DNA from: Bacteroidia bacterium
GTDB lineage: Bacteria > Bacteroidota > Bacteroidia > NS11-12g > UBA955
Direction: 5' to 3'
Length of the DNA stretch: 64,000 nt
Assembly: GCA_044224315.1 (NCBI GenBank)
Contig: JBGAKR010000005.1
Span: 21,442-85,441, forward strand
Shown in pieces: positions 6,991-53,857 of the stretch. A program made the translations under genes and the position numbers. Below the pieces are notes generated by a model that was given only the letters and a program-made list of their open reading frames with translations, searched no databases and had not been told where the DNA came from. The stretch's first letter is position 1. Each line of letters begins with the position of its first letter.

Positions 6991-7185
6991 ATTCACAAAG
7001 TTAGGCTATTCCAAGGCTTTTGATTGTAACCAAAAGTACATTGGCTGATTATTATTTCTTTACCAACAAGCATAAATCTGCAATTCGTTCACTGCCTTTT
7101 TGTCACACAGAATCAATTTTACCTGCACTTATGGCGCGATTGCCTTTTTTGGATTGCCTTTTGCCCTAAATTCGCGAACCATTTT

Positions 7186-10625: not shown

Positions 10626-11276
10626 TTAATAAAACAGGTACCCGAAAGTGAGGCTAAAACTATGGTGTTGGGCTTCCTGCCCGTTTATTGTACCCAAAGA
10701 AGTTAGCGGTCCATTGCTGCGCACATTTACATAATAATAATTTTCGCGGGCCTTGGCGGTAATTCCAAGACCATAAGTATAACTTAAATTAGTTGGATTT
10801 ATACCGCTTAAACTTTGGCCGGTATATCCGTAGTTATCATTGCGGTTTGCATCAGAATAAACCCTTGAGCTGGCCGCGAAAATATTAAAATTCATACCCG
10901 CTCCGGCTAGCGCATTGAAACTTAAATTATCATTACCCAGGTATAAACGGGCAATCAATGGCACTTCTAAATCTACCAATGTATAGGTTTCTTTAAAATT
11001 ATAGGTTTGGCTGGGAAATCCGGCTTTCTCTGATCCATTAAAAACACCACCTTTGCTGGTGCCCACCACATCCAAACCAAGCCCAAATAATGGATTGAAT
11101 CTATAGCAAGAACTTGCACCAACTGTAAATGCAATTTTAGGATCCACCGCACCTAATCCCGGGGCTTTCATATCGGCCTGGCCAATACCCACCACGCTGC
11201 CAATTCCGAGCTGAGCAAATGCACTGTAAGTATTGAATACCAACAGGCTAAGTAGAAAAAGAGTTTTGTTTTTCAT
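10626..11276 (-). CDS. Outer-membrane beta-barrel protein (porin / OmpA-like barrel family).
   Basis: Signal peptide MKNKTLFLLSLLVFNTYSAFAQ. Alternating beta-strand pattern. Aromatic C-terminus ...LTFGYLFY. Confidence 0.6.
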   Translation of the reverse strand: MKNKTLFLLSLLVFNTYSAFAQLGIGSVVGIGQADMKAPGLGAVDPKIAFTVGASSCYRFNPLFGLGLDVVGTSKGGVFNGSEKAGFPSQTYNFKETYTLVDLEVPLIARLYLGNDNLSFNALAGAGMNFNIFAASSRVYSDANRNDNYGYTGQSLSGINPTNLSYTYGLGITAKARENYYYVNVRSNGPLTSLGTINGQEAQHHSFSLTFGYLFY

Positions 11277-11328: not shown

Positions 11329-11366
11329 AAAAAAGGCCGCCCGCCCAAGCGGACGACCTTTCCAGG
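11329..11366 (-). terminator. Intrinsic terminator downstream of the DUF4382 gene (minus strand).
   Basis: The minus strand reads ggtcgtccgc-ttgg-gcgggcggcc (imperfect GC-rich hairpin) followed by a T9 run. Confidence 0.5.
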
Positions 11367-11372
11367 AAGCTA

Positions 11373-11918
11373 TCACAATTTGGTGACTGATTTTACCGTA
11401 ATTCCGGGTTTCAGATTAAATCCTCCGTTGCCAAGTACAACTACAGATTTAAGTGCATCAAAATCCAGTGTTACCTGATAGTTTGCGTTGGCATCGATAA
11501 CCGTATCGAGGTTTATCTTTAAGCCAGTTTGCCCGCCGGAGGGAATTTTAAGCGCAAACTCTGCAGAATCAACAACCACCGTATTGTGAGTACCCAAAAT
11601 GAGTCGGATCTGGTGAATTTTACCCGCTGGTAATTTAGTACCTGTTGCAATTACAGCCGTAACATCATTTTGCAGCTTTAGCAAATCATACACTCCCGCG
11701 TTTGTAGCCAGGGTCACCCAACCTCCGGATGCCCCTGCAGAATCGGTGTAATGTACCTGCACTTCTTTGATTTCCACATTTACTTCATCGTACAATGCGG
11801 GTGCATCGGTCATTTTCACCACTAATTTACCGGCTGCCATATTTAATTTACGACAACCGGCGCTGAAAATGGCCACTGCCATGGTAATAATCAGCAATTT
11901 TTTACTGTGCTTTTTCAT
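11373..11918 (-). CDS. DUF4382 family lipoprotein.
   Basis: Lipoprotein signal MKKHSKKLLIITMAVAIFSAGC. Conserved KMTDAPA motif near the mature N-terminus. Paralogous to 16488-17303. Confidence 0.6.
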   Translation of the reverse strand: MKKHSKKLLIITMAVAIFSAGCRKLNMAAGKLVVKMTDAPALYDEVNVEIKEVQVHYTDSAGASGGWVTLATNAGVYDLLKLQNDVTAVIATGTKLPAGKIHQIRLILGTHNTVVVDSAEFALKIPSGGQTGLKINLDTVIDANANYQVTLDFDALKSVVVLGNGGFNLKPGITVKSVTKL

Positions 11919-11955: not shown

Positions 11956-12459
11956 TTAGAACACAAATCGTACCGCCAAACCTGGGTCCAGCGCGGTCAT
12001 CCAATATCCGGCAGAGTTTCTCTCTATGTATGGTTTCACATCCATGCTGAAGGTTACTGGTGCAGTTTTTAATTTATATTCCAATCCTAAAATCCCATCA
12101 ATTCCTGCCATATTCTCATTCAAATAGTAATCATAATATTTTCTATTTCTGGGATAATAAAAATATCGGGTTTGATAGGTTGAAATGTGGAATCCTCCGC
12201 CATAATAGTAGCTCAAATTTGGGGTACCTGTATTCTTATAGGTTTCAATCAACAAAGTTAAATTGGCATCATAAGGACGGAATCCAAACATTCCTTCAAT
12301 GTAATTGCGGTTGCCTATATTCTGCTTTACAGAAATTCCGCTGGTCCATCCGGTTCTGAAGCCAAAAGCAGTGTTATACAACTTTTGTCCATGGACCTGA
12401 TTGGTTGCACAAAATGCCAGCAACCAGGTTAATCGTTTGATTCTTTTTAGGTTTTTCAT
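11956..12459 (-). CDS. Hypothetical secreted protein, possibly a small outer-membrane beta-barrel protein.
   Basis: Signal peptide MKNLKRIKRLTWLLAFCATNQVHGQ. Aromatic/Gly-rich alternating sequence. C-terminus ...LAVRFVF. Confidence 0.45.
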   Translation of the reverse strand: MKNLKRIKRLTWLLAFCATNQVHGQKLYNTAFGFRTGWTSGISVKQNIGNRNYIEGMFGFRPYDANLTLLIETYKNTGTPNLSYYYGGGFHISTYQTRYFYYPRNRKYYDYYLNENMAGIDGILGLEYKLKTAPVTFSMDVKPYIERNSAGYWMTALDPGLAVRFVF

Positions 12460-12549: not shown

Positions 12550-12567
12550 AAAGGAATTAATTCCTTT
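12550..12567. promoter_or_regulatory. Perfect 18-bp palindrome AAAGGAATTAATTCCTTT between the response-regulator stop and the downstream gene; a candidate operator.
   Basis: Perfect inverted repeat read directly from the sequence. AT-rich, and not followed by a T-run on the transcribed (minus) strand. Confidence 0.3.
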
Positions 12568-12581
12568 GCATTTTGCCTTTT

Positions 12582-12602
12582 ATTTTCTCATTTTGAGAAA
12601 AT
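12582..12602. promoter_or_regulatory. 9-3-9 palindrome ATTTTCTCA-TTT-TGAGAAAAT; a candidate regulator-binding site. A near-identical copy lies at 17414-17434.
   Basis: Perfect inverted repeat about 10 nt downstream of the response-regulator stop and about 125 nt upstream of the 11956-12459 start. Confidence 0.35.
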
Positions 12603-12611
12603 AATGGGGAG

Positions 12612-13964
12612 TTAATCCGCCTGAAACTCCTTAAGAATGCGATAAATTGTAGCCGGACTTATATCCAATTTTTGCGCAACTGTTTGAATATCTTTTTGGT
12701 ATTTATTCAGCATAAATTGAATGATTTTATAAGTATATTCTCTCAAGGTAAATTCTGACTGTAATAATTGCTGTAACTCATCCGAACGCTGAAAAACAAG
12801 ATCTGATGGAGTAACATAATCCGTATCGGACAATACAACGGCAGTTTCAATCACTGATTTCAATTCGCGTACATTGCCTGGAAATGAATGCGACAACAAC
12901 AAGGATTGTGCTTCTGGTGTTAATTTTTTTTCTCTAATTTTATTCTCAGAACAAAAGCGTTGTATGAATTCTGAAGCCAGAATTAATACATCATGCCCAC
13001 GCTCTCTAAGCGGCGGCAATTGCAGAGTTAAACCCATGATGCGGTAATACAAATCCTCTCTGAATGTTCCGTTTTTTACTTCTTCTGCCAGGTTTTTATG
13101 TGTGGCAACAATTAATCTGAAATTTGTTTTTTTAATTGAATTGCTTCCAATGGGTGAGTATTCTTTTTCCTGTAAAACCCTCAACAATTTGGTTTGTAAG
13201 GCCAAATCCAACTCTGCAATTTCATCCAAAAAAAGAGTGCCATTATTGGCTTCTTCAAATCGTCCTTTGCGAGCACTAATGGCACCCGTAAATGCCCCTT
13301 TTTCGTGACCAAACAATTCGCTTTCTACCAACTCTTTAGACAGTGCCGCAATATTTACCGGAACATAGGCTTTATCCCTGCGATCTGAATTATAATGAAT
13401 GGCTTTAGCTACCAATTCTTTTCCGGTGCCGGTTTCTCCCGTAATAAAAATATTAATATTGGTATTTGCCGCCTTGCGCATCAATTCAAATACTGCAAGC
13501 AAAGATTTGCTATTGCCTATTATAGCAGATTGGAAATCATATTTCTTTTCAACTTCCTGCTGTAAAACGGCAATTTTCTTTTCCAGGTTGGTGGTGCGAA
13601 TTAGGTGGCTTAGGGTATTTAAAAGCCGTTCCTTTATTTCGGTATTTTTTACCAGGTAATCATAAGCACCATCTTTAAGCAATCCAACTGCAACTTCAAT
13701 CTCCTCCTGCTCGCTGATCACCACCACTTTAATTGAATCATTAATACTTTTTATTTGATGTATCAATTCATCACCCGTCATATCGGGCAGGCGGTAATCT
13801 ACCGTAATCAAATCAGGTTGTTTGTTCAAGTTTTTAAGCAATTCTCCTGCGGTAGTAAAGCTCTCCACTTCTACTTCCGGATTTAATGATACCGTGTGCA
13901 CAATAAGCTTATTGTACCAAGCATCATCCTCTACTACAAACACTTTAAATAGGCGATTTGGCAT
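12612..13964 (-). CDS. Sigma-54-dependent response regulator (NtrC family): receiver domain, AAA+ sigma54-activator domain and Fis-type HTH.
   Basis: Receiver phospho-Asp context LITVDYRLPDMTG. Walker A GETGTGKE. GAFTGA sigma54-contact motif. R-finger region. C-terminal HTH (ATIYRILKEF). ATG at 13964. Confidence 0.9.
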   Translation of the reverse strand: MPNRLFKVFVVEDDAWYNKLIVHTVSLNPEVEVESFTTAGELLKNLNKQPDLITVDYRLPDMTGDELIHQIKSINDSIKVVVISEQEEIEVAVGLLKDGAYDYLVKNTEIKERLLNTLSHLIRTTNLEKKIAVLQQEVEKKYDFQSAIIGNSKSLLAVFELMRKAANTNINIFITGETGTGKELVAKAIHYNSDRRDKAYVPVNIAALSKELVESELFGHEKGAFTGAISARKGRFEEANNGTLFLDEIAELDLALQTKLLRVLQEKEYSPIGSNSIKKTNFRLIVATHKNLAEEVKNGTFREDLYYRIMGLTLQLPPLRERGHDVLILASEFIQRFCSENKIREKKLTPEAQSLLLSHSFPGNVRELKSVIETAVVLSDTDYVTPSDLVFQRSDELQQLLQSEFTLREYTYKIIQFMLNKYQKDIQTVAQKLDISPATIYRILKEFQAD

Positions 13965-13995
13965 ATTCCCTGCATACAAAGGAACTAAAAAACAG

Positions 13996-14022
13996 GCTTA
14001 AAACCCCAGTTTTTTTTAAGCC
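13996..14022 (-). terminator. Weak AT-rich hairpin plus U-run between the kinase and regulator genes; a possible partial terminator or attenuator.
   Basis: The minus strand reads gcttaaaa-(loop)-ttttaagc followed by ctgtttttt. Confidence 0.25.
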
Positions 14023-14057
14023 ACAATCAAGCAAGCAGTTACACAAAACAGGAATCC

Positions 14058-16475
14058 TTATTTATCAGGTTTAAAGGTCTCTAAACCCTTAAATTCGGCT
14101 TGGAGCAATCTTTCCAAGCTTGCATAAAGTTCGGGCAATTTATCCTTTCTCTCAGTTCTGGCTTCTGCTTCCATTTCTTTCAAAATTGAAACCACAGTTT
14201 TGAGATGCAAATGTCGGCAAGGAGGTACCATAACATGTGCCAAATCGCCAATTTCCTTCCATTTGGTTAACTCAATATTATTTCGCAATTCAACGAGATT
14301 CTTAGAAGTATTTTCAATAAAAACGGCAACCATTTCTTTGGCAAATGTTTCATCCCCATCCGCCATTTTTAATAAATCAGTCATACTAAATTCAAGCTCA
14401 CCCGGATTGCTTATCAATTTGGTTTCTATATTCACTTCCTGCATGAATGCATCATTTTCCGCCCATACTTTTCCTAAAATTTGAATTAATTCTATTTCAG
14501 AAAATGGCTTCTGCAATGCCAGGTGAATGCCTGAAAATTGTCCTTCATCCATAATTTCCTGCGGATTTCCGGCAGTTAAAGCTATCATCGGAGTAGCAAA
14601 ATTTAAATGTTTTGAATTGCCTGCAATTCCACTCGCCACTTCAAATCCGGTAAGGCCTGGCATTCTTATATCCAATAAAACCGCATCATATTTATGCGCA
14701 TTCAATAAGGATGCGGCATCGGTACCGTTAAAACAAACATCGTATCTGGCACCCCATTTTTTCAAAATGGTTTCCAATAACTTGGTATTGTACAACTCAT
14801 CATCTGCAATTAAAAAATATTTATCCTTAAATTGTTTGCCAGACATTGTTTTCTTTGTAGACTTTGGCTTTGCCTGAGACAATCTGAATGGCAAGCCCAC
14901 CGCAACCGAAGTACCTAGGCCTTTCTCGCTGGTTAATTTAATATTTCCTCCGAGCAATGTAACTAATTTTTTGGCGATAGTTAAGCCCAGACCTGTGCCT
15001 GTAAAACGGGCATTTTCAATCTGATTCTCCTGCTCATACTCTTCAAAAATCAGGTTTAGTTTTTCACCGGAAATGCCTTTGCCTGTATCCGAAATTATAA
15101 TATTCAGATGGAGAATTGCATTGATTTTATCTAGCTCTGAATGAACTTTTATTTTTACATTTCCCTTATCTGTAAATTTAACCGCATTGGCCAATAAATT
15201 AATGATTATTTGTTTAAAGCTTATTGCATCTCCTTCCACCATAGGAAGCGATTCTAAATCACCCTCCTGCTTTAATTCCAAACCTTTTTCTTCAACCATA
15301 GGCTGAACAATTAAAACAGCATCATGCAGTGCTTCTCCGGGCAAGAAATCATCCGACCTTGGCACAAATTTATCGGCATCAATCCGCGAAATATCCAGAA
15401 TATTGTTAATCAGATTTAATAGATGTTCGCTTGACTTTTTTATGATGGCAATTTCGGCCTGGGTGTCGCCTGTATGCCCAGGAGTGAGCAATTGTCCGGC
15501 AAACCCTATTATGGCATGCAAGGGAGTTCGAATCTCGTGCGACATGTTGGCTAAAAACATTTCTTTTGCGACCGCCAGCTTTTCAGAACTGCGTTTTGCC
15601 AATGCAAGTTGCCGCGTAATTTCGCGCACTTTTTGAATATAACTAACTATGACGTATCCCATTAAAAACATGAGTACTGCCAGCACAATGCAAAACACAG
15701 CTATCAGCACATTGGTTTGGGAAGCCAGGGCATCCGCTTCTTTGGATTGTAACAAAATACCACGCTGATATTTAATTTCTAACTGATTAATTAAATTGCG
15801 TATTCGAGCCATAATCTGCCCATCTTTTTGGGTAATTTCCAACATCACCTTTGCACGTTCAGCTGCATTTTCAGCTTCAAGGTAACGCATAGTTTCAATC
15901 TCAGTTTGAATGTCCAATTCAGGTATGGTTGCTCCGCCTGATTTACGTTTGCGGGTGCCAAATATCTTCTTAAGAAAACCCGACTCCGCATCAGTTCCTG
16001 TAATTGCATCCGGGCTTGCTTTTTCAGACAATTCCTCCAGAATGGCCTGCATTCTGCCGGTATCCCTTGCGTTTACAAATTGGTTTAATACAATAAATTT
16101 TAATTGCACCAGATTACTTAAAGAATCTACCATCGCTCCGGATGAATCCAAAGATTGAATTTTCTTCAACCGTTTCAGATTCTTATCTATATGGTTCACA
16201 GTTTCGGAATAAGGTACTAGGTACTTCGGTTGGTTGGTAATTGTAAAAGATTTTATATAGCCTTCGGCATCAGAAATTTGTGAAATTATAATTTTCATTA
16301 AATATAATCTTTCATCGGGGTGGGCACTTTTTTCTACCCCCTTTACTATTTTATTCATTGAAAACCAAGCCAATATCCCAATTGATACCACTACCAGTAC
16401 TGCACCGGCAAATCCAAGCATCAATCGCCATTCGATGGTAATTTTCTTTACTGGTTTTTTTAATATCCTGTTCAT
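14058..16475 (-). CDS. Hybrid sensor histidine kinase. Domains in order: N-terminal TM sensor region, HisKA, HATPase_c, receiver, and a probable C-terminal HPt-like region.
   Basis: TM helices at the N-terminus and around VLIAVFCIVLAVLMFLMGYVIV. H-box MSHEIRTPLHAIIGF. N/G boxes (NLLANAVKFT, DTGKGI, GTGLGLTIAKK). Receiver FLIADDELYNTKLLE...DAVLLDIRMPGLTG. C-terminal helical region with His residues. Confidence 0.9.
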   Translation of the reverse strand: MNRILKKPVKKITIEWRLMLGFAGAVLVVVSIGILAWFSMNKIVKGVEKSAHPDERLYLMKIIISQISDAEGYIKSFTITNQPKYLVPYSETVNHIDKNLKRLKKIQSLDSSGAMVDSLSNLVQLKFIVLNQFVNARDTGRMQAILEELSEKASPDAITGTDAESGFLKKIFGTRKRKSGGATIPELDIQTEIETMRYLEAENAAERAKVMLEITQKDGQIMARIRNLINQLEIKYQRGILLQSKEADALASQTNVLIAVFCIVLAVLMFLMGYVIVSYIQKVREITRQLALAKRSSEKLAVAKEMFLANMSHEIRTPLHAIIGFAGQLLTPGHTGDTQAEIAIIKKSSEHLLNLINNILDISRIDADKFVPRSDDFLPGEALHDAVLIVQPMVEEKGLELKQEGDLESLPMVEGDAISFKQIIINLLANAVKFTDKGNVKIKVHSELDKINAILHLNIIISDTGKGISGEKLNLIFEEYEQENQIENARFTGTGLGLTIAKKLVTLLGGNIKLTSEKGLGTSVAVGLPFRLSQAKPKSTKKTMSGKQFKDKYFLIADDELYNTKLLETILKKWGARYDVCFNGTDAASLLNAHKYDAVLLDIRMPGLTGFEVASGIAGNSKHLNFATPMIALTAGNPQEIMDEGQFSGIHLALQKPFSEIELIQILGKVWAENDAFMQEVNIETKLISNPGELEFSMTDLLKMADGDETFAKEMVAVFIENTSKNLVELRNNIELTKWKEIGDLAHVMVPPCRHLHLKTVVSILKEMEAEARTERKDKLPELYASLERLLQAEFKGLETFKPDK

Positions 16476-16487
16476 TTTGCTTGTTTT

Positions 16488-17303
16488 TTATTGTTGAAAA
16501 TACACTTCACTTATTTCTCCCTGAATAACTTTCACTTCGGTAAACCACGATTGCTTTTGATGGGGCAATCGCAATTTGCTTTTTAGTGGTCGGGTTAATA
16601 TGGTATAATTTGCAGGTTCAATTCCACGCATTAAAAAAGCGCCGGTCATATTGGTATAGGCACTAAATGTTTCTTTAAAATTGGTGGCGTAAACAATAGC
16701 TCGCTGACTGCCAGGCACCACCCCCCAAAAACCTGTATCGGGATCAGAAATATGGGTAATAACAGGATTTAATTCAAAAAAAGGATTTGCAAAACGCACC
16801 GACCTCGACACATCGAAATCAATTAAAACTGATGTATTCGTAGAGAACACAACCGGAGTTTCTAACTCGATTTCAACCTGATTGCTATTTTTTAAATACA
16901 AATTGATTTGCTTTTTTGTAATTAAATGATTGTTTTTTATTTTCTCTTCATCTTCTACCAACAGAACATTATTAGCGCCAAATTTAATCCGCAAATGGGT
17001 AAAAATTTCTATTTTACCCTGAATGAGTTTTTTATGTGCAAGTTCCAACTCACGGCCATTGGTTAGTTGCAGCACATCAAATCGGGCATTGACAATATCC
17101 ATGGGTTGCCAGCCTCCATCCAGTGAATAAACCTCTACCTCCAGTACCTCTACGATCAGGCCTTTAAAACTGGCTGGGTTGTCGGTAATACGAACAGTAA
17201 ATACCGGGGCTGCCAACGATGCGGCATACAGGGTTTTGGCAAAAGTCGAAAAAATTGACCCCTGTTTTTTTACTTTTTCAAGTTCTATGATTTGCCCACC
17301 CAT
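16488..17303 (-). CDS. DUF4382-like protein, paralogous to 11373-11918, with no obvious signal peptide. Its stop is 13 nt upstream of the kinase start.
   Basis: RITDNPASFKGLIVEVLEVEVYSLDGGW aligns with KMTDAPALYDEVNVEIKEVQVHYTD..GGW of the other copy. ATG at 17303 (preceded by a TTG). Confidence 0.5.
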   Translation of the reverse strand: MGGQIIELEKVKKQGSIFSTFAKTLYAASLAAPVFTVRITDNPASFKGLIVEVLEVEVYSLDGGWQPMDIVNARFDVLQLTNGRELELAHKKLIQGKIEIFTHLRIKFGANNVLLVEDEEKIKNNHLITKKQINLYLKNSNQVEIELETPVVFSTNTSVLIDFDVSRSVRFANPFFELNPVITHISDPDTGFWGVVPGSQRAIVYATNFKETFSAYTNMTGAFLMRGIEPANYTILTRPLKSKLRLPHQKQSWFTEVKVIQGEISEVYFQQ

Positions 17304-17413
17304 CAATGGTGCTATTACAAACCCGCGTCCAATTTTTTTATGAATTTACTTTTACTTTAATTAATAAACTATCAATCGGTTAAACGCCACTGATTAAGAA
17401 CACAACACTTCAG

Positions 17414-17434
17414 AATTTCTCAAATTGAGAAAAC
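17414..17434. promoter_or_regulatory. Palindrome ATTTCTCAA-A-TTGAGAAAA in the divergent promoter region between the DUF4382/HK/RR unit and the S46 peptidase. Same motif as 12582-12602.
   Basis: TTCTCAA-A-TTGAGAA is a perfect 7-1-7 inverted repeat. An additional TTCTCA half-site lies at 17463-17468. An imperfect aaccatcc...gggtggtt hairpin is adjacent. Confidence 0.35.
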
Positions 17435-17512
17435 CATCCTCAATTTGAAATTCGCAGGGTGGTTCTCAAAATTCAATGCACACAATTCCTTGATTGTATA
17501 CCTTTGCAGTAT

Positions 17513-53365: not shown

Positions 53366-53857
53366 TCAACTTAAATTTTCCGGTGGAGAATGCGGAGTTG
53401 CTGAAAAACCCGCTGTCATATTAATGTTATATTCAGGGTAAAAAAAACAGCATGAATTGCAATTTATGTTATAATTAAATGGAATATGGTTGCACCAATC
53501 TTTGGCGAATGGAATTTTGTTTTTAACCCAATCATTTGAAGAATTCGCAGCCATAGATTTCAATATCCCATACTCAATTTTATCATTAATAGCTGCTATT
53601 TCCCATTTATCACCGCGGAGAGATGCTGATACGATATCAAATTCAGTATTTTGCCAAAAGATTTCATCCCCTGCTTCAACTCTGACAATTTCTGAAACGG
53701 GAATTATCAGTTTCGCCAGATTTTTTTGATCCGAAATGCGGGCAATTTGTTGCTTAACGCAATATTTACGTGCCAGCACAGCTGTTACCTGCAGCAATGG
53801 CAATGCCGCGAATAAAAGCGCCAAGGACAAAGTAAATACTTTTAGATTTCGCAACAC
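53366..53857 (-). CDS. Small secreted hypothetical protein, a paralog of 50557-51042; C-terminal Cys cluster CNSCC.
   Basis: Signal peptide MLRNLKVFTLSLALLFAALPLLQVTAVLA. Shared motifs KIPFAKDW, NYNI, PPENL. Confidence 0.5.
   Translation of the reverse strand: MLRNLKVFTLSLALLFAALPLLQVTAVLARKYCVKQQIARISDQKNLAKLIIPVSEIVRVEAGDEIFWQNTEFDIVSASLRGDKWEIAAINDKIEYGILKSMAANSSNDWVKNKIPFAKDWCNHIPFNYNINCNSCCFFYPEYNINMTAGFSATPHSPPENLS

Follow-up and report, generated by a model that had tools for sequence, protein, structure and literature searches.

Paired TTCTCA-W3-TGAGAA palindromes as candidate sigma54 enhancers in a DUF4382 and two-component gene cluster of Bacteroidota

A 64-kb stretch of DNA from a Bacteroidia bacterium (assembly GCA_044224315.1, contig JBGAKR010000005.1, positions 21,442 to 85,441; hereafter the window) contains a minus-strand gene cluster for a DUF4382 protein, a hybrid histidine kinase, and a sigma54-dependent response regulator, followed by genes for a 167-aa secreted protein and a DUF4382 lipoprotein. 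Two near-identical palindromes lie in intergenic regions of this cluster. From sequence comparisons across Bacteroidota, it is likely that these palindromes are the strong dyads of two enhancers used by the cluster's own response regulator, one upstream of each of the two operons.

Palindromes and their association with the regulator family

Site 1 reads ATTTTCTCA-TTT-TGAGAAAAT (12582-12602), with perfect arms that reach 11 bp each (12580-12604), and lies 8-10 nt past the stop codon of the regulator gene (12612), ahead of the minus-strand gene that follows (ATG 12459). Site 2, ATTTCTCAAATTGAGAAAA (17414-17432), is flanked by two divergent genes, the minus-strand DUF4382 gene (ATG 17303) and a plus-strand S46 peptidase gene. 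Its outermost pair is a non-complementary A/A, and the perfect palindrome within it is TTTCTCAA-A-TTGAGAAA, or equivalently TTTCTCA-AAT-TGAGAAA (17416-17432). Both inverted repeats had been reported in the initial annotation of this DNA, and their exact letters, the limits of site 1, and the placement of both sites relative to the genes agree with what we found; site 2, which had been extended to 17434, is two bases shorter. The element common to both is TTTCTCA-N3-TGAGAAA, matched exactly by the main dyad of enhancer 1 (12584-12600, TTTCTCA-TTT-TGAGAAA), upstream of the 167-aa/DUF4382 operon, and by that of enhancer 2 (17416-17432), upstream of the DUF4382-kinase-regulator operon. Both are perfect 7-N3-7 dyads, the symmetry expected of sites for a bacterial enhancer-binding protein (bEBP). 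With its 14 specified bases, TTTCTCANNNTGAGAAA has exactly two matches in the window versus 0.00 expected (100 dinucleotide-preserving shuffles), and the 12-base core with one mismatch allowed returns the same two (0.13 expected). No further copies with fewer than three mismatches were found in the window, the next-best matches having three. Weak position-matrix matches are present at 6991, 27505, 49858, and 50891, three of them in coding sequence and one weak.

We compared the window with 16 Bacteroidota loci (196 kb) that encode regulators 46-80% identical to the one described here, and with 1.45 Mb of controls, which comprise 73 Bacteroidota loci with kinase homologs only and 78 loci of unrelated bEBPs (35-43% identity). 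Loci L001-L004 came from a kinase scan of the species collection (regulator 53-55% identical), which yielded no close genome, the kinase identity being at most 34%. A metagenome scan provided at least two orthologs (L081, L082), and its remaining loci served as negative controls. Exact-protein look-ups of regulator homologs provided L161 (80%), L162 (71%), L163 to L167 (61-62%), and L169 (the same organism); L163 to L167 include Sunxiuqinia elliptica and Gaoshiqia sp. Z1-71, and L165 is a Sunxiuqinia. At one mismatch or fewer, TTTCTCANNNTGAGAAA has 11 matches in the ortholog loci versus none in the controls. The ortholog dyads are intergenic: they precede the kinase/regulator operon, lie between the kinase and regulator genes, or follow the regulator stop codon ahead of a 167-aa-type gene. 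The dyad of enhancer 2 is present at the equivalent position in L161, L164, L165, L166, L167, L171, and L172, and that of enhancer 1 directly past the regulator stop codon in L161, L162, L163, L164, L165, L167, L004, L171, and L172. In alignments of the two intergenic regions (A2 and A3), the dyads are the main conserved blocks and the flanks have diverged; in A2, conservation is highest at the main dyad of enhancer 2, and the main dyad of enhancer 1 is a conserved block in A3. Symmetric variants are found in more distant orthologs, namely TTCCCA-AAA-TGGGAA in L001 and TTTTCA-N3-TGAAAA in L081.

The gene order of the cluster is kept in L161-L167 and L169-L172, with full synteny (S46 peptidase, DUF4382-kinase-regulator-167aa-DUF4382, secA) in L161 and L163. 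In L161, where two extra genes and a terminator come between the operon and the S46 peptidase, it is the operon that the dyad accompanies. No S46 gene adjoins the cluster in L164-L167, L171, or L172, and conservation of the dyad is therefore not tied to the peptidase. Co-regulation of the peptidase was considered and rejected, since its adjacency is not conserved and L161 separates it from the operon.

Once the expectations for dyads and promoters had been fixed, three further orthologs (L170, L171, and L172) were examined. Dyads with two mismatches or fewer and perfect TTCTCA/TGAGAA cores are present both upstream of the kinase and past the regulator in L171 and L172, together with promoters of score 11 (scoring is described below) at +74 to +107, including TGGAAT-ACATA-TTGA in L171. 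Locus L170 has only a variant with three mismatches (TTTCGCAAATTGATAAG), a promoter of score 10, and no downstream target operon. The predicted arrangement was found in two of the three.

Some clusters contain an extra dyad and -24/-12 promoter (L165 5205-5337, L166 5905, and L042 7538). The extra dyad in L165 precedes a small receiver-only gene, and elsewhere it falls between kinase and regulator, suggesting that cluster wiring varies between genera. In L161 (5719-7093) the regulator is split into an 85-aa receiver open reading frame (ORF) and a 362-aa AAA+/helix-turn-helix (HTH) ORF, which may reflect a frameshift, a pseudogene, or an assembly error. The strong dyad of the same locus overlaps the regulator stop codon, the TGA of TGAGAA being the stop.

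The fine structure of the sites is regular. None of 19 sites has a G or C in the 3-bp spacer, and the position matrix of those 19 sites is symmetric. A second, weaker dyad is found exactly 20 bp from the strong dyad, centre to centre, the sole enriched offset in the scan, and it gives the multiple phased sites expected for oligomer assembly. It is promoter-distal (-20) at enhancers upstream of the operon and promoter-proximal (+20) at those between the regulator and the 167-aa gene. For enhancer 2, the secondary dyad TCCTCA-ATT-TGAAAT (17437-17451) has 9 of 12 core matches at 20 bp on the side distal to the promoter, and its TTCAAATTGA block is conserved in A2. The secondary dyad of enhancer 1 (12565-12579, minus-strand AAGGCA-AAA-TGCAAA; 20 bp, promoter-proximal) is weak, with 6 of 12 core matches; L161, L164, L165, and L004 have stronger versions of it, and its CAAAATG block is conserved in A3. 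A TTCTCA half-site that had been noted near site 2 is present at 17463-17468; its distance of 46 bp to the main dyad does not fit the 20-bp phase, and L161 lacks it. Some 45-50 bp separate the half-site from the probable S46 start downstream, and it may be a chance occurrence.

The response regulator (12612-13964, minus strand) has the features of a cognate activator, namely a receiver (REC) domain, an AAA+ domain with the GAFTGA loop (Pfam Sigma54_activat, E 4.8e-68), and a C-terminal HTH. It is the sole GAFTGA protein in the window and the only conserved protein of the cluster with a DNA-binding domain. Residues 7-447 align with full-length NtrC1 (PDB 4l4u), C-terminus covered. A C-terminal HTH was expected and found; its description as Fis-type is supported in orthologs, several of which are 58-60% identical to the regulator and have precomputed matches to Pfam HTH_8 (PF02954), and in the regulator itself the match is weak (E 0.019, 15.1 bits vs a cutoff of 22), with the "Mga" HTH model scoring better. 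The best PDB match is LuxO (5ep0), and LuxO is among the top NCBIfam models (353 bits vs a cutoff of 800); the HTH also weakly matches the C-terminus of the LuxO model (E 2.3e-4). The ntrC model gives 357 bits (cutoff 559), and all equivalog models score far under their cutoffs.

Candidate sigma54 promoters and the proposed circuit

Promoters were assessed with a simple weighted score for TGGCAY-N5-TTGC, taking the best match within 170 nt downstream of each dyad, and 5000 random windows of the control loci provided the null distribution. A score of 11 or more was obtained at 16 of 25 sites (null 0.059), and 12 or more at 9 of 25 (null 0.008). The -24 G is 75-112 bp away from the dyad centre (21 cases), within the ~70-150 bp upstream of a -24/-12 promoter that was expected of an enhancer. 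Separations of 75-112 bp are in the usual range for bacterial enhancers. Canonical promoters are found in L165 and L166 (TGGCAC-AACCA-TTGC, CGGCAT-AACAA-TTGC, and CGGCAT-TGTAA-TTGC, the first two in Sunxiuqinia L165), and a set of 22 promoters shows conservation of TGGCAY at -24 and of TTG at -12. As a separate observation, dyad-to-(-24 G) distances among 22 hand-picked promoters cluster at ~76, 84, 95, and 111 bp, which may reflect helical-face constraints.

It had been stated at first that no convincing sigma54 promoter exists near the cluster genes; one conserved and one weak candidate are present. The preferred promoter of the 167-aa/DUF4382 operon is TGGAAT-AAAGA-TTGA (12510-12496, minus strand; score 11, null P 0.059), whose -24 G is 84 bp from the dyad centre and whose -12 position is 37 nt from ATG 12459. 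It aligns with TGG-N8-TTG(A/G) in L161, L163, and L164, and nearly so in L167. The candidate singled out in the initial annotation, TGGCTA-TGTGC-TTGA (12545-12531, minus strand), is there with a score of 10 and may be an alternative or second promoter; only 49 bp separate it from the dyad centre, and its register is not kept in A3. For the DUF4382-kinase-regulator operon, the candidate is TGGACG-CGGGT-TTGT (17331-17317, minus strand), with its -24 G 95 bp from the dyad centre. It is weak and rests on a column-for-column alignment with TGGCAA-TGCAA-TTGT of L161; its ortholog counterparts are stronger in L164 (TGGCAC-CCGGG-TTGA) and L167 (TGGCAT-TTATA-TTGA).

A number of observations weigh against these assignments and against the enhancer interpretation built on them. 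The final base of the -12 element varies in the 22 promoters (A7, C6, G4, T5), so the canonical C is not kept; for the same reason, a TTGA does not disqualify a candidate. Taken alone, promoter 17331-17317 is insignificant (score 9, null P 0.71), and its -12 position is only 14 nt from ATG 17303. The same layout is seen in L161 (~2330-2350), and the short distance implies a nearly leaderless sigma54 transcript; the distance from -12 to the start codon in other orthologs is 23-32 nt. Loose TGG-N8-TTGM matches are not enriched in the window (27 found vs 26 expected), the tabulated promoters were picked as best scorers, which inflates their apparent conservation, and rpoN is not in the 64-kb window. 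At the 16 loci, regulators with "GK-STIYR" before the recognition helix tend to pair with TTCCCA/TGGGAA or TTCCTA/TAGGAA dyads, and the L081 regulator with "GQTTVYR" has a TTTTCA/TGAAAA dyad; this co-variation of HTH and dyad is only suggestive, the sample being too small to count as evidence.

In the model that we favour, each enhancer would consist of a strong dyad, TTCTCA-W3-TGAGAA, and the weaker dyad 20 bp away, with one regulator dimer bound to each through the C-terminal HTH. Phosphorylation of the regulator by the adjacent CHASE3 hybrid kinase would lead to assembly of an AAA+ ring on the paired dyads, and DNA looping would carry the ring to RNA polymerase-sigma54 at a -24/-12 promoter ~85-95 bp downstream, which would be opened upon ATP hydrolysis. 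Enhancer 2 would then provide positive autoregulation of the DUF4382-kinase-regulator operon, and enhancer 1 would turn on the 167-aa secreted protein, the DUF4382 lipoprotein, and possibly an outer membrane protein (OMP) encoded further downstream. We infer binding by the regulator, its dependence on phosphorylation and sigma54, and the sign of regulation from the arrangement of these elements. An earlier proposal that the palindrome is the site of a dimeric protein, used by the NtrC-like regulator in part for autoregulation, gains support from the way in which the dyad tracks regulator orthologs and from the candidate promoters at enhancer distance. The "bracketing" of the DUF4382-kinase-regulator unit by two palindromes appears to be a by-product of two tandem operons, as site 1 would work as the enhancer of the downstream operon rather than as a 3' boundary.

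The type of mechanism is that of a standard bacterial enhancer and is not new. What appears new is a regulon of a CHASE3 kinase and a sigma54 activator in Bacteroidota controlling DUF4382 and small envelope proteins, as well as the apparent reuse of a Vibrio enhancer half-site in this phylum. We lean slightly toward the broader view that this is a widespread, undescribed Bacteroidota sigma54 regulon, in which a CHASE3 kinase acts on a SypG/LuxO-like activator that controls itself and operons for DUF4382 lipoproteins and small outer-membrane-type proteins through paired TTCTCA-W3-TGAGAA enhancers. If so, its promoters, which do not keep the -12 C, would form an unusual sigma54 class, and the transcript would have almost no leader in the window and in L161. 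The model offers a concrete regulatory scheme for the two-component system and for DUF4382, a family with essentially no literature, with a defined enhancer motif, candidate promoters, and a likely regulon core that are conserved in the cultured relatives Sunxiuqinia and Gaoshiqia.

Genes of the cluster and neighbouring features

In order of transcription, the cluster genes, all on the minus strand, begin with the 271-aa DUF4382 protein (16488-17303; Pfam PF14321, E 2.2e-12), the first gene of the proposed autoregulated operon. It is followed by the hybrid histidine kinase (14058-16475; CHASE3-HisKA-HATPase-REC-Hpt by Pfam), the presumed cognate sensor, and by the regulator gene. The proposed first target is the 167-aa secreted protein (11956-12459), whose translation has a signal peptide, is beta-rich, and ends in a C-terminal Phe. 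This protein has no Pfam or NCBIfam match, even at E = 1, and no significant similarity to the neighbouring OMP; its homologs come after the regulator in L001, L004, L081, L161-L164, L167, L171, and L172. The proposed second target is the 181-aa DUF4382 lipoprotein (11373-11918; PF14321, E 3.1e-35), which has a lipobox-like FSAGC motif. With 30% identity (E 3e-15), this lipoprotein and the 271-aa DUF4382 protein are paralogs, and each palindrome is thus upstream of an operon carrying a DUF4382 paralog. An intrinsic terminator (11330-11363, minus strand; 15-bp stem with 8 GC pairs, then a T-run) ends the 167-aa/DUF4382 unit. Beyond it lies the gene for a 216-aa OMP beta-barrel protein (10626-11276; Pfam OMP_b-brl_2), a possible further target that is syntenic in L161, L164, and L167. 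Being past a strong terminator, the OMP gene may form a separate transcription unit, and neither a dyad nor a promoter was found in the ~50-bp gap between the terminator and the gene. No glycosyltransferase or export genes were found in the cluster or the syntenic loci. A full-text literature search turned up no study of this system or of DUF4382 in bacteria; one paper in the searched collection names DUF4382, only in passing.

The S46 peptidase on the plus strand probably starts at the in-frame ATG 17513, which gives a signal peptide, rather than at GTG 17459, the start in the ORF list. A TAnnTTTG-type box, TACCTTTG (17499-17506), is located just upstream of this ATG. The L169 gene call for the peptidase begins 28 codons later and loses the signal peptide.

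Two other sigma54-like sequences in the window were rejected. The sequence CGGCAT-TGCCA-TTGC (53793-53808, minus strand) is inside the hydrophobic N-terminal coding region of a 163-aa ORF (53366-53857) and is probably a chance match. A TGG-N8-TTGC match upstream of secA (7150-7164) overlaps a conserved Bacteroidetes sigmaA-type -33/-7 promoter and is coincidental. The region (7147-7180) reads TTTTGG...TAAATTCG and is conserved in L161 (TAACTTTG) and L163. The secA case warns against trusting loose -24/-12 matches in Bacteroidetes.

Alternative explanations and comparison with known enhancers

The dyads could instead be operators for another transcription factor encoded elsewhere, such as a repressor, with joint control of the cluster and possibly of the S46 peptidase; the sigma54 regulator would then bind at other sites. 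Consistent with this, site 2 lies 90 bp ahead of the probable S46 start, in a divergent region that the two transcription units share, and the additional TTCTCA half-site is nearer to the peptidase. However, the dyad is found in six loci that lack an S46 neighbour and stays with the operon in L161, and such a factor would have to co-vary with the regulator orthologs across genera, given a dyad absent from the controls. The dyads also fit the enhancer motif of a characterised bEBP, as given in PMC10162802, and they lie at enhancer distance from -24/-12 elements. We consider an unrelated factor unlikely.

Site 1, only 8-10 nt past a stop codon and with a predicted RNA fold of -11.2 kcal/mol (z = -5.1), might also be read as an RNA hairpin, a terminator or attenuator ending the regulator gene, with site 2 an unrelated look-alike. 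The stem is nevertheless A/U-rich and has no U-run, and a terminator scan skips both sites yet finds the one at 11363-11330; the fold of site 2 is weak (-5.2 kcal/mol, z = -1.6), and this site lies ahead of an operon, just as equivalent dyads come before the first genes of operons in many loci. In addition, L165 has a separate GC-rich terminator past the dyads and the window has no Rfam match, which leaves the hairpin quite improbable. It is hardly conceivable that the palindromes are chance copies, or members of a dispersed REP- or MITE-like repeat family, without a regulatory role. The sequence is AT-rich and of low complexity, and the scan of the source genome covered 64 kb; against this, only two copies are found there, both in the cluster, where none is expected and nothing else has fewer than three mismatches, and the positions are kept from genus to genus in spite of diverging flanks, with no copies in the controls. 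The proposed enhancers can be set beside three characterised systems.

NtrC (GlnG) acts at glnAp2 through a 17-bp 7-N3-7 dyad, TGCACCA-N3-TGGTGCA, with paired sites ~32 bp apart upstream of a -24/-12 promoter, and oligomerises after phosphorylation. The regulator described here has the same domain architecture as NtrC. The half-site, in contrast, is unrelated, the sites are 20 bp apart, the neighbourhood has no nitrogen-metabolism genes, and the protein is under the ntrC cutoff, as noted above.

The LuxO upstream activating sequence at qrr promoters, TTGCAWWWTGCAA as quoted in PMC10162802, has the same geometry as the dyads, with two half-sites and a 3-bp A/T spacer, and the weaker secondary dyads of the window (GGCAAAATGC and TTTGCAAAATG) resemble it in the form quoted there. 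The regulator is not a LuxO ortholog, because its whole-protein score is less than half of the family cutoff, and there is no qrr sRNA or quorum-sensing context here.

A further likeness is to SypG of Vibrio fischeri, for which the enhancer motif is TTCTCANNNTGMDWN according to PMC10162802, citing Ray et al. 2013. Both window sites fit this quoted motif in both orientations (4 matches vs 0.37 expected), and nothing else in the 64 kb does. Both regulators are REC-AAA+-HTH sigma54 activators fed by hybrid kinases. In the syp locus, a sigma54 promoter and SypG sites accompany each of several operons (PMC10804989), a layout resembling that proposed here for several operons of one locus. The systems differ in their hosts (Bacteroidota vs Gammaproteobacteria), in the full symmetry of the dyad found here and its second dyad phased at 20 bp, and in their predicted targets, which are DUF4382, the 167-aa protein, and OMP_b-brl_2 rather than syp-type polysaccharide synthesis. 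By analogy of motif and architecture, the element would act like a SypG/LuxO-type enhancer without being a member of the syp system. If this is correct, a half-site equal to that of Vibrio SypG would imply that the protein-DNA recognition code has been conserved, or transferred, across phyla, and the recurrence of a Vibrio enhancer motif in Bacteroidota could help to predict the targets of related activators.

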